Shown here piece after piece: positions 13,775-15,895 of a DNA stretch of 64,000 nucleotides. Under the pieces are notes generated by a model. That model saw nothing but the letters and a program-made list of their open reading frames with translations. It ran no database searches and was not told the origin of the DNA. The stretch's first letter is position 1. Each line of letters opens with the position of its first letter. The position numbers were made by a program, and so were the translations under genes. This stretch comes from Minisyncoccota bacterium (GTDB lineage Bacteria > Patescibacteriota > Minisyncoccia > Phycocordibacterales > UBA9973): contig JAGOUR010000003.1 in the NCBI GenBank assembly GCA_018061145.1, positions 32,170 to 96,169 on the forward strand. The letters are read 5' to 3'.

Positions 13775-15895
13775 ATGAAAGATATTGAAATAAAAAACAG
13801 AATAGAAAAATTAAAAGACGAGATATCTCGTCTTCGTTTTGCATATCACGTGGAGAATGACCCAAATGTGACAGATGATGTATATGAATCACTAACTCGC
13901 GAGTTGAAAAATCTAGAAGAAAAGTATCCAGAATTCGCCGATATAAATAGTGGTGTAAATCGTGTAGCAGGTGAGCCTCTGCCAAAATTTTCAAAAGTGA
14001 CTCATGATTCTCGCATGCTATCTCTGAATGATGCATTTTCAAAAGATGAAGTTTTGGAGTGGAAAAAAAGAATTTCTAAGCTTATAAATAAAAAGTATTC
14101 TTATTTTGCTGAATTGAAGATGGATGGGCTCGCTGTATCACTCATATATCAGGATGGTGTGTTTGTCCGGGGCGCCACTCGTGGGGATGGATGGATAGGA
14201 GAGGATATCACCGAAAATTTAAAGATGATAAATACTATTCCATTAAAATTAAATGGAAATTTTCCTGGTACATTTGAAGTCCGCGGGGAGGCTGTGATGC
14301 CAAAGAGGGCTCTTGCTGGTATAAATAAAATTCGTATAGAAAATGGGGAGATATCTTTTGCAAATACTCGCAATGCTGCAGCTGGTTCACTACGACAACT
14401 AGACCCTCAAATAGTAAAAGATCGACATCTTGATTTTTTTGCATGGGACCTGGCTCAATACGATGATATGGATATAAAGACTCACTCAGAAAAGCATGGC
14501 ATTTTAAAAAAGATGGGTTTCACTCTGGCGCCCTATGATAAAAAATCTGACACTCTAGAAGAAATATTTAATTTTATCGATGAAGTAGAAAAAGTCCGAC
14601 CCAACCTTCCTTATGGTACCGATGGTATTGTTATTACTGTAGATCAGAATGAATTGCAGGAAGTGATCGGAGTTGTAGGCAAGGCCCCACGATATTCTGT
14701 AGCATTTAAATACCCAGCAGAAAAGTCTACAACTACAGTTTTAGATATCACTGTGAATGTGGGGCGCACCGGAGTCCTCACCCCACTCGCGCATTTTACC
14801 CCTACACTCGTGGCGGGTTCTACTGTTTCCAAAGCTACGTTGCACAATATGGATCAGATAGAGAGACTCGATATCCGTATAGGTGACACTGTGGTTATTC
14901 AAAAGGCAGGGGATGTTATTCCTGAGGTAGTCGAGGTTCTCGTCGGTATGCGCACAGGCAAAGAAAAGAAATTCAAAATGCCAGAGTCTTGCCCTGTGTG
15001 TAACGCTGGTGTGGAAAAGAGAGACACCTCCGAAAACCAAAGCTCCTCTCGTAAAAGTATTATCGAAAGCAGGAAAAGTCCTCGAAGAGACGGTCTGGCC
15101 GAGCGTGGGCGCGAAGGAGATCCGAGGACCTCGATGAGAGGAGCTTTTCCTGCTGAAGATAAAAGAACTTCCGTAGCGTTCTACTGCACAAATAAAAACT
15201 GCCCTGCAAAGAATCAACGAGCGATGCAGCATTTTGTAAATGCATACGAGATATACGAGATAGGTCCAAAGATTTTGGACAGATTAAAGGAGGAGGGTCT
15301 GATCAGTGACGCAGCTGATTTATTTGCTCTAGAAAAAGCTGATCTTTCAGGCCTTGAAAGATTCGGAGAAAAATCTGCAGATAATATTATATCTTCTATT
15401 GAATCTCACAAAAAAGTAGAACTTTGGAGATTTATTTATGCATTAGGGATACTCCACGTAGGGGAGCAGACATCACACGATATCGCCGACCATTTTGAGA
15501 CTTTAGAAAAAATACAAAAAGCAAGTCTTGAAGAAATAAATAATATAGAAAATATTGGACCCGTAGTATCGGAAAGTATCTATAATTATTTTACTCACAC
15601 AGAAAATATTCATTTTATTGAAAAGCTTTTCGCGAATGGTGTCACTATCTACAAGCAAAAAACAAATAGCAAAAAGCTATCCGGTATGACTTTTGTCCTC
15701 ACGGGGACACTATCTACTATGAGCCGTGATGATGCAAAGAAAAAGATACTTGCAAATGGTGGCAAGGTGTCTAGTTCTGTATCTGCCAAGACTTCATATT
15801 TAGTAGCGGGTGTTTCCGCTGGGTCAAAATATGATGAAGCCCAAAAACTAGGAGTCAAAATCCTCTCCGAAGATGAATTTTTAAAGATGGCATAG
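13775..15895 (+). CDS. ligA: NAD-dependent DNA ligase LigA; start moved to the internal ATG at 13775; contains an in-frame insertion of about 45 aa in the Zn-finger region
   Basis: KxDG adenylation motif (ELKMDGLAV), OB fold, CPVC...CTNKNCPAK zinc finger, HhH and BRCT regions. The ORF-track start at 13706 overlaps the upstream gene; the ATG at 13775 follows the upstream stop directly. Confidence 0.9.

Follow-up and report, generated by a model that had tools for sequence, protein, structure and literature searches.

The zinc finger of LigA and its insert

The stretch of DNA analysed here (the window) comprises 64,000 nucleotides (nt) of contig JAGOUR010000003.1 from a Minisyncoccota bacterium (positions 32,170 to 96,169; assembly GCA_018061145.1) and contains ligA, the gene of an NAD-dependent DNA ligase. 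The subject of this work is a GC-rich, hairpin-forming insert located in ligA between the two cysteine pairs of the zinc finger. The open reading frame (ORF) matched the NCBIfam equivalog NF005932 (E = 3e-234, 779 bits, cut-off 369) in two stretches, the alignment breaking after residue 416 and resuming past the insert. The adenylation, OB, HhH and BRCT domains identified with Pfam place the protein in the LigA family. Of the Pfam model DNA_ligase_ZBD only the second half was aligned (residues 464-478), under the cut-off, because the insert splits it. Among 8000 LigA homologues recovered, the nearest named ones were from Nomurabacteria and Paceibacteria.

The four cysteines (C406, C409, C471 and C476) were invariant throughout an alignment of 115 sequences (A3). 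Their two pairs are separated by 61 residues in the window and by 15 in the closest empty alleles, L278 (protein P0003) and L002, a loop 46 residues longer; in the comparison with the solved LigA of Thermus filiformis (1DGS), 56 window residues occupy the place of 7. From these two comparisons the inserted block was delimited at about 15023-15172. It comprises 150 nt, a multiple of three with no stop codon, lies between both cysteine pairs and stands in place of about four codons of the empty allele (VEKK-VGDM-VAFYC; VEKKxGDMVAFYC in L278 and L002). The original prediction of an in-frame block of 135-150 bp, encoding about 45 extra residues rich in Arg, Ser, Glu and Gly, was confirmed in size, place and composition. 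The antisense ORF that it had reported over the insert is also present, without a match in Pfam or NCBIfam; its frame is uninterrupted since the element is free of stop codons on that strand too, and the antisense frames of inserts were open more often than in shuffles.

The structure of the window LigA was predicted with AlphaFold2 from an alignment of 115 sequences, with a mean predicted local distance difference test (pLDDT) of 78.6. Residues 419-465 had a pLDDT of about 25, and the flanking strands (412-417 and 467-471) were kept. With these strands in place and the four cysteines invariant, the zinc knuckle is predicted to form, and the insert is modelled as a disordered excursion that leaves it intact; the probable disorder of the extra residues had been anticipated, and whether the finger still forms had been raised as a point to check. 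The insert appears to be translated as about 46 extra residues, because the frame and the lack of stops are strictly conserved. The encoded segment is predicted to lie at the protein surface in a way compatible with the fold, as in the Rickettsia palindromic elements (RPEs).

Composition and folding of the insert

The GC content of the insert is 0.51, against 0.39 in the rest of ligA and 0.38 in the window. This is a moderate enrichment, as other 100-nt stretches of ligA attain 0.50-0.55; the earlier wording of a content far above the flanks had the right sign and an excessive size. Three inverted repeats were identified: 15039-15050 with 15136-15147 (12 of 12 paired; the first arm, AAAGCTCCTCTC, had been placed one nucleotide too late, at 15040), 15060-15078 with 15144-15162 (I1; 19 nt, 84%) and 15078-15084 with 15123-15129 (7 of 7, as first described). 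Folded as DNA, the 111-nt hairpin 15054-15164 had z = -4.4 on the plus and -4.5 on the minus strand, none of 200 shuffles was equally stable, and it ranks fourth in stability among the 110-nt windows of the 64 kb. The high self-complementarity first noticed is borne out by the DNA hairpin, and the RNA fold of the full 171-nt segment gave a weaker signal (z = -1.9 and -3.2). The covariance models of Rfam 15 returned nothing at the gathering threshold for the insert, the sole match with E <= 10 being a chance similarity to a snoRNA at 13 bits. Two resemblances were set aside: the string 'CGATGAG...GAAA' recalls the hammerhead core, a motif that is not kept in other copies and has no Rfam support, and that of 'TGGCCGAGCG' to a tRNA D-arm was unsupported by ARAGORN or Rfam.

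Presence, absence and orientation among relatives

The length of the zinc-finger loop in the 120 closest LigA clusters was at most 22 residues in 37, 23-40 in nine and above 40 in 74; inserts at this site are carried by 83 of the 120, and their peptides fall into several unrelated-looking classes. The ligA loci of species-representative genomes were collected (80 loci), and the zinc finger was intact in all of them. Every one of the 50 inserts longer than 80 nt had a length divisible by three and a sense frame without stops (4.4 expected from shuffles), as well as a GC content above its own flanks, and folded at -0.2 to -0.5 kcal/mol per nt.

The closest relatives differ in the state of the site. 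L001, from the species of the window, carries an insert 98.8% identical. L278 and L002 are empty, and in the former the flanking ligA DNA is 87-89% identical to that of the window. L003 and L279 carry the element in the same (plus) orientation; their outer stem is that of the window, and after the copy comes a second hairpin element, unrelated to it. L277, with ligA flanks 80-83% identical to the window, carries a minus copy with an unrelated outer stem; its unit and that of the window are identical over 32 + 32 nt, inverted, including clade-specific arm variants. An in-place inversion as the sole source of orientation was rejected on this pair, since both share the unit and their outer stems are unrelated, for which a plain flip between the outer arms is insufficient.

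The two orientations were found throughout the collection. In an all-against-all blastn of the loops, 37 loci formed one homology cluster, and many pairs align on the opposite strand alone, with 88-94% identity over 65-98 nt (L026 and L029, 89.8% over 98 nt; L052 and L058, 93.7% over 79 nt). The LigA proteins of the opposite-strand loci are 57-69% identical to that of the window. In the zinc-finger loop the nhmmer model identified 11 copies in plus and 12 in minus orientation. Because the same DNA is present in both orientations, the antisense translation of the window insert matches the sense LigA peptide of P0004 and P0008. With four states (empty, other element, plus, minus), parsimony on a rough neighbour-joining tree of 83 LigA sequences needed 39 or more changes, and 7 or more switches of orientation among 24 copies.

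Short loops of 18-21 residues (...AGFGESSSSVA...) seem by eye to keep the first bases of the unit; they were for this reason discarded as the pre-insertion state and are read as footprints of internal deletion.

The second hairpin element of L003 and L279 (about 11350-11440; AAAAATTTTTCC..GATAAAAATTTTT, peptide QNSKNFSA..LKGSDADKNFH) stands in tandem in these closest relatives of the window and alone in other LigAs (also L016 and P0120). Composite loops with two or three elements reach 87 residues in P0040.

Anatomy of the element

The core of the element is formed by GGTCTGGC, 14-33 variable nt and CCGAGGACC, and is asymmetric. Moderately conserved arms flank the two boxes (AAAGTCCTATGAGCAAY ... 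TTGCGAAGAGGAGCTTT in the oriented copies of alignment A2), and by eye the unit ends in the copy table as AAAG(T)...(A/G)CTTT, with inverted, locus-specific flanks beyond. The parts identified in the window are listed in Table 1. In a collection of 90 copies, box 1 was found in all; this is not independent evidence of its invariance, because the collection pattern selected for the box, allowing C or T at its last base.

The arms are in turn enclosed by a stem of about 20 bp that changes in sequence with the lineage and remains complementary. RNAalifold predicted 25 pairs, 20 of them with compensatory double changes. Paired cells amounted to 93.7%, compared with 73% in shuffles and 39-59% with slid partners, and double-change cells to 113, compared with 30 expected; none of 500 shuffles attained the observed values. 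Over the 90 copies a median of 32 bp encloses the core, against 6 at control positions.

Two T.G positions of the element are conserved, which makes it asymmetric and its orientation definable; in minus copies they turn into A.C mismatches in the mRNA. Over 49 inserts there was no bias towards the mRNA strand (sense more stable in 23, antisense in 25, p = 0.93), whereas in 15 of 21 copies (p = 0.01) the plus strand of the element itself had the more stable fold, whatever the direction of ligA transcription. Since stability follows the strand of the element and not that of the mRNA, the asymmetry belongs to the element and not to the host transcript. To judge from these comparisons of sequence and fold, it argues for recognition of one particular folded strand.

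Upstream of the complete copy, the window keeps the stump of an older copy in the opposite orientation, formed by the first 16-18 nt of a minus copy and ending just before the position of the core. The stump contains the first arm of the 12-nt inverted repeat. L003 and L279 have the plus copy without stump, and the layout of a stump followed by a complete plus copy is repeated in L008, P0018 and P0081. The recurrence of stumps that end at the border of the core may point to breakage at this position.

Empty sites had no prior palindrome in the two filled/empty comparisons, the ligA loop and an intergenic site of L073 (against L048 and L059). Therefore the outer stems arrive with the insertion or form during it, and insertion into the apex of existing palindromes was rejected for these two cases. 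The outer stems were also compared with host codons at the PheT and TruB sites, with no clear answer either way.

Table 1. Features of the ligA locus and of the inserted element (positions in the window)
Feature	Position	Strand	Basis
ligA, NAD-dependent DNA ligase, host gene (706 aa from ATG at 13775)	13775..15895	+	ORF list, NCBIfam, Pfam
Zinc finger, first half, CPVC (C406 and C409)	14990..15001	+	Invariant in the 115-sequence alignment A3
Zinc finger, second half, CTNKNC (C471 and C476)	15185..15202	+	Invariant in A3; Pfam DNA_ligase_ZBD 464-478
Whole inserted block, 50 codons, D417-S466	15023..15172	+	Alignment A1 with empty L002; comparison with L278
Stump of an older opposite-orientation copy, CAAAGCTCCTCTCGTAAAAG	15037..15056	+	Matches the 5' end of the L277 minus copy, CCAAAGCTCCTCTCAT
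Outer stem, 5' arm, locus-specific, TTATCGAAAGCAGGAAAAG	15060..15078	+	Inverted repeat I1; common to L003 and L279; that of L277 unrelated
Conserved unit, 73 nt, AAAGTCCTCGAAGAGAC-GGTCTGGC-apical region-CCGAGGACC-TCGATGAGAGGAGCTTT	15075..15147	+	nhmmer model, alignment A2
Core box 1, GGTCTGGC	15092..15099	+	Invariant in all 21 aligned ligA copies
Apical region, variable, subtype 'CGAGC..GCGAAGGAGAT'	15100..15121	+	One of five subtypes
Core box 2, CCGAGGACC	15122..15130	+	Invariant in A2; 90-copy table
Outer stem, 3' arm, locus-specific, CTTTTCCTGCTGAAGATAA	15144..15162	+	Inverted repeat and covariation
Antisense ORF, spurious, 163 aa	14741..15232	-	ORF list

Copies in other genes and in metagenomes

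A scan of metagenome contigs for the core (20 specified bases) gave at least 120 loci, of which 53 were on high-GC contigs without further similarity and were discarded as noise. Among the matches listed, about 63 low-GC loci (0.29-0.50) fit the element model, with 67 model hits; ORFs of 80 aa or more contain 50 of these. Pfam assigned 20 host ORFs to 17 gene families: Tgt, a TrwB/VirD4-like ATPase, MurB, UvrA, UvrB, UvrC (twice), UvrD (twice), the CCA-adding enzyme, DNA polymerase I (PolA), KsgA, PheT, MnmA (twice), TruB, Dus, a DHH-domain protein, a class-V aminotransferase and an FAD oxidase.

Every one of the six combinations of orientation and phase occurs in the reading of the core, with 19, 4 and 2 cases in the orientation of the host gene and 15, 7 and 17 in the opposite one. 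The resulting peptides are unrelated (NGLAG..RGPEK, NWSGP..VRGP, MVWLS, GPRIS..GQT, VLGSP..PDHS and RSSDEGGRGARP). What matters is thus not the peptide, as one and the same DNA is found in either orientation and every frame, in LigA, in at least 17 other gene families and between genes. Each of the five apical subtypes was found in the ligA loop, in other ORFs and in intergenic positions, and five full-length copies of the ligA subtype stand directly after stop codons. L206 presents three copies with identical apical regions within 3.8 kb, a recent burst.

Three intergenic core copies in one orientation (6291-6335, 6746-6790 and 7907-7943) surround a recA-like gene in L232. Two of them are near-identical variants with GGTCTGGT, and the copies may double as terminators.

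The viral contigs gave no hit with the specific 20-nt pattern; the 76 hits of the core-only pattern were all weak, all high-GC and were rejected as noise. A protein-level search with the 40-aa insert peptide gave no candidates, and an exhaustive HMMER search with the insert peptide gave two low-complexity repeat proteins only, which are spurious.

Other hairpin insertions were identified in the same group of genomes. An unrelated family, named K, is present in LigA (two sites), PheS and PheT of L067, L070 and L071. Its core is CTCCACCCTxCGGGCGGAACCTTCCGC, read in frame in the three proteins as ..LHPSGGTFR.. or ..GRFRPKGG..; its coordinates are 16528-16585 and 18591-18655 in L067 and 17462-17536 and 19502-19566 in L070, and the PheT site was likewise compared in L071, L068 and L069. 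The PheT loop preceding ..FKMWSLFP.. contains a different palindromic or repetitive insert per genome in all genomes examined. The adenylation domain of LigA has further insertion sites. The one between DFFAxD and HSEKH contains in-frame hairpins in L060 (10687-10765), L067 (10739-10796) and L070 (10706-10758), a copy in L073 (10707-10759) maps near the same position, and the hairpin of L078 (10468-10505) lies more upstream, ahead of the ...EVRGE... strand. In the LigA of the window nothing is inserted between DFFAxD and HSEKH. A blastn of the ligA-loop inserts of 80 genomes against the window gave no match outside ligA.

Nature of the element and alternative explanations

The block in ligA is in our judgement quite probably a copy of a repeated GC-rich hairpin element, widespread in Paceibacteria (candidate phyla radiation, CPR/Patescibacteria), which would behave as RPE-like selfish DNA. 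The comparison with RPEs was already part of the original prediction, and it is supported by the empty relatives, the two orientations, the GC enrichment and the copies elsewhere. The orthologues are neither all filled nor of ordinary composition at the site and other copies exist, which is the opposite of what had been named as the mark of a lineage-specific linker.

As a mechanism we propose that the element is non-autonomous selfish DNA of which a single strand, recognisable by its conserved T.G positions, would fold into a hairpin. An enzyme acting in trans would read the folded strand through the asymmetric core and then copy or move the element. Selection would retain only the copies that are in frame and stop-free in tolerant surface loops, or that are intergenic. 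In a resident copy, templated processes between the arms, such as quasi-palindrome template switching or recombination between the inverted arms, would maintain complementarity, renew the outer stems and could flip the orientation.

Several points weigh against an RPE-like selfish element. Mobility is deduced from the distribution of copies and was not seen, and translation of the insert is read from the conservation of the frame. The search for further copies, which was positive in other genes, intergenic sites, other genomes and metagenomes, was negative in the 64-kb window, both by sensitive blastn and nhmmer (E <= 100) and by counting motifs. In 1.4 Mb around ligA from 81 genomes only four copies were identified outside the zinc-finger loop, three in L073 and one in L060, including the second LigA site in the adenylation domain; with so few, the element could be an old, vertically inherited resident of the lineage. 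No transposase or candidate enzyme was identified in about 20 kb per genome, where the ORFs around the multi-copy L232, L206 and L073 were listed without a protein-family search, and the phage and plasmid collections, like the viral ones, gave no element match. No direct repeat of the flanks was noticed by eye at three filled/empty junctions, with no systematic search, and the origin of the locus-specific outer stems lacks an explanation. The parsimony counts inherit the roughness of their tree. Finally, the invariance of the core over deep divergence suits a binding site useful to the host equally well.

In the alternative to which this last point leads, the element is a motif of DNA or RNA similar to REP (repetitive extragenic palindromic) sequences and useful to the host, as a binding site of a nucleoid, repair or topoisomerase-type protein or as a terminator or stabiliser; the intergenic copies are functional and the genic ones are tolerated by-products. 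The boxes are indeed invariant across lineages with LigAs only 57-69% identical to that of the window, five full-length copies lie right after stops, where terminators lie, three intergenic ones surround recA in L232, no mobilising enzyme was found and the strand asymmetry is intrinsic to the element. However, about three quarters of the listed dispersed copies are inside ORFs, the most occupied site is a coding loop, copy number is very uneven between genomes and close relatives differ in presence or absence, which is unexpected for a needed site. We regard this explanation as rather unlikely; it is compatible with a selfish origin.

The strong hairpin and its covariation would also be expected of a structured RNA acting in cis in the ligA mRNA, for example one that regulates, marks a site of processing or makes the ribosome pause, and a structured RNA embedded in the coding region had been the second option of the original prediction. 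This option is not supported: some half of the copies in ligA run antisense to its mRNA, the sense strand has no stability bias, the T.G positions become A.C mismatches in the mRNA of minus copies, the same element is present in more than 17 unrelated genes and between genes, and Rfam gave no match. It is considered improbable.

Still less credit is given to a lineage-specific functional segment of the protein, such as a DNA-binding addition to the zinc finger, disordered and rich in Arg. In LigA-DNA structures the zinc-finger region is close to DNA, the inserts are always in frame and stop-free and the window peptide has the Arg-, Ser-, Glu- and Gly-rich composition, but no conserved peptide is seen, one and the same DNA yielding unrelated ones such as ...DGLAER..GDPRT..., ...GPRISS..LGQT... 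and ...KVLGRGRTRGQT... in its various frames and orientations, relatives at 84% identity are without insert, the segment has no modelled structure and neither Pfam nor NCBIfam matched it. A protein function as the origin of the insert is largely refuted; a secondary exaptation in some lineages is conceivable.

Removal or bypass of the segment at the level of RNA or translation, as with an intron or a mitochondrial 'byp' element, by which LigA would be made without it, has precedents in the insertions that CPR bacteria excise from their rRNAs and in the GC-rich palindromic inserts bypassed by ribosomes in one yeast mitochondrion, but it is very improbable, as frame and stops would then be irrelevant (50 of 50 inserts are in frame and stop-free, against 4.4 expected) and Rfam identified no ribozyme or intron. 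Equally improbable is that each hairpin was made on the spot by template-switch mutation, without shared ancestry or movement: template switching can yield perfect stems and compensatory changes in one step and the outer stems are locus-specific, but identical 8- and 9-nt boxes, unit flanks and apical subtypes at dozens of unrelated loci are left unexplained, so that template switching may be behind the outer stems and is already contradicted for the core.

Returning to the selfish, RPE-like element, its peculiarities admit a broader and more speculative reading as a so far undescribed type of structure-specific mobile DNA of the CPR, which we put forward tentatively, as a possibility with the odds against it. 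The only fixed parts of the hairpin would be two short asymmetric boxes on one folded strand, and the element would be copied together with, or would generate, locus-specific inverted flanks instead of direct target duplications. Resident hairpins might be re-invaded and flipped, so that protein loops, chiefly the LigA zinc finger, would act as permanent 'palindrome traps'. An enzyme or a replication-based copy-choice might be behind the movement, and the element could account for a large share of the differences in protein length among Patescibacteria.

Other features of the window

The 13-mer AGGAAAAGTCCTC, part of the outer stem in the ligA insert, recurs in an intergenic hairpin at 44117-44172; as chance alone would give about 0.3 matches of this kind, the hairpin is probably an ordinary terminator.

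Between ligA and gatC lies an ORF of 308 aa (15916-16842, minus strand) with a GC content of 0.25-0.38 in 100-nt windows and no Pfam match. In L277 and L279 gatC follows ligA after 18 nt, so the ORF is a lineage-specific inserted gene.

Several repeats are associated with tRNA genes. Two copies of 65 nt, 98% identical and 85 nt apart (26798-26947), stand just upstream of tRNA-Gln (27017-27088, minus strand), and a partial reverse-complement copy (about 436-470, ..CTCATAAGGAAAAGGTCTTCGAATC..) adjoins tRNA-Ser (278-365). The shared end of the repeat resembles a tRNA T-arm, and it may be a tRNA-associated repeat or composed of tRNA fragments. The most stable 110-nt fold of the window (341-450, -62 kcal/mol) is found in the same place, with a perfect 19-bp hairpin (358-376 with 393-411) overlapping the 3' end of tRNA-Ser. 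ARAGORN identified another tRNA-Ser at 1582-1667 (minus strand) with the anticodon ACT, and Rfam confirmed it as a tRNA; the A at position 34 is unusual for bacteria.

The end of the window contains at least five tandem copies of a 126-nt unit of 42 aa (62155-62865) and two copies of a 291-nt unit (63028-63608), which probably belong to the gene of a repeat-containing protein.

Comparison with known systems

The closest counterparts are the RPEs (RPE-1 to RPE-10; Ogata et al. 2000, 2002, as summarised in PMC10969869 and PMC3767692). These are elements of 100-150 bp found in frame in housekeeping genes, at the same sites of orthologues and in solvent-exposed positions, by an unknown mechanism (PMC10969869, PMC3767692), sometimes with different groups at one site and with PheT among the hosts (PMC3767692, PMC10969869). 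The element described here shares with the RPEs and the Wolbachia palindromic elements the hairpin repeats of about 100-150 bp in small AT-rich genomes, the in-frame location in housekeeping genes as well as between genes, the use of one orthologue site by differing element groups, the exposed or disordered peptides, the lack of a known transposase and PheT as a host. A repeated palindrome of about 100-150 bp with in-frame copies in ORFs, by which RPEs are recognised, is what was found.

The differences are in the host, the architecture and the reading. The host belongs to Patescibacteria and not to Rickettsiales, the closest genomes being metagenome-assembled ones of Paceibacteria or Nomurabacteria. 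Here a central asymmetric core with short unit flanks is conserved and the outer stem of 10-25 bp is locus-specific and covarying. At one site the two orientations have about equal shares, and with reading in all six frames no 'element peptide' is conserved. The insert peptide, in either orientation, had no match with E <= 1 in Pfam or in an NCBIfam release whose RPE models are unconfirmed.

REP sequences and REPINs, which are mobilised by REP-associated tyrosine transposases (RAYT, of the Y1/HUH type), are, as is proposed for the present element, non-autonomous short imperfect palindromes read as folded single strands, and REPINs form long hairpins with conserved irregularities. They have no target-site duplication; here none was noticed by eye at the few junctions compared. 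REPs and REPINs are essentially extragenic and carry a GTAG-type tetranucleotide, whereas the present element is mostly genic (50 of the 67 hits listed).

[quoted passage not shown] Classical MITEs have shared terminal inverted repeats and direct target-site duplications, in contrast to the locus-specific inverted flanks found here and to the few junctions at which no direct duplication was noticed by eye. This flank structure does not fit standard transposition.

The GC clusters of yeast mitochondria are GC-rich palindromic mobile elements of an AT-rich genome with optional in-frame copies in var1, and they resemble the present element in being GC-rich palindromes in an AT-rich genome, with in-frame copies in a protein gene; they are eukaryotic and organellar, shorter and of another sequence family. 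In the attC sites of integrons one folded strand is recognised, the choice being set by unpaired bases. These are also hairpins that vary in length and sequence and keep no more than short boxes and structural asymmetries, but their boxes stand at the hairpin base and border gene cassettes, and no integrase or cassette context was seen here.

The full-text literature searched contained no earlier description of such an element in CPR, Parcubacteria or Paceibacteria. What is described here is an RPE-like phenomenon in another phylum, with a distinctive architecture and no sequence similarity detected. In-frame palindromes in essential genes have been unexplained since 2000 and essentially confined to Rickettsiales, and in this case the insert splits the metal-binding motif of an essential enzyme. 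The consequences extend to annotation, with split Pfam domains, spurious antisense ORFs and inflated CPR protein lengths, and to phylogeny, with homoplasy added to marker alignments such as those of PheT, KsgA, the Uvr proteins and LigA. The thousands of CPR genomes and the deep metagenomes make the phenomenon testable, with the asymmetric core as a defined probe. A second, independent and data-rich case, in Patescibacteria, shows that such palindromes recur in small AT-rich genomes.

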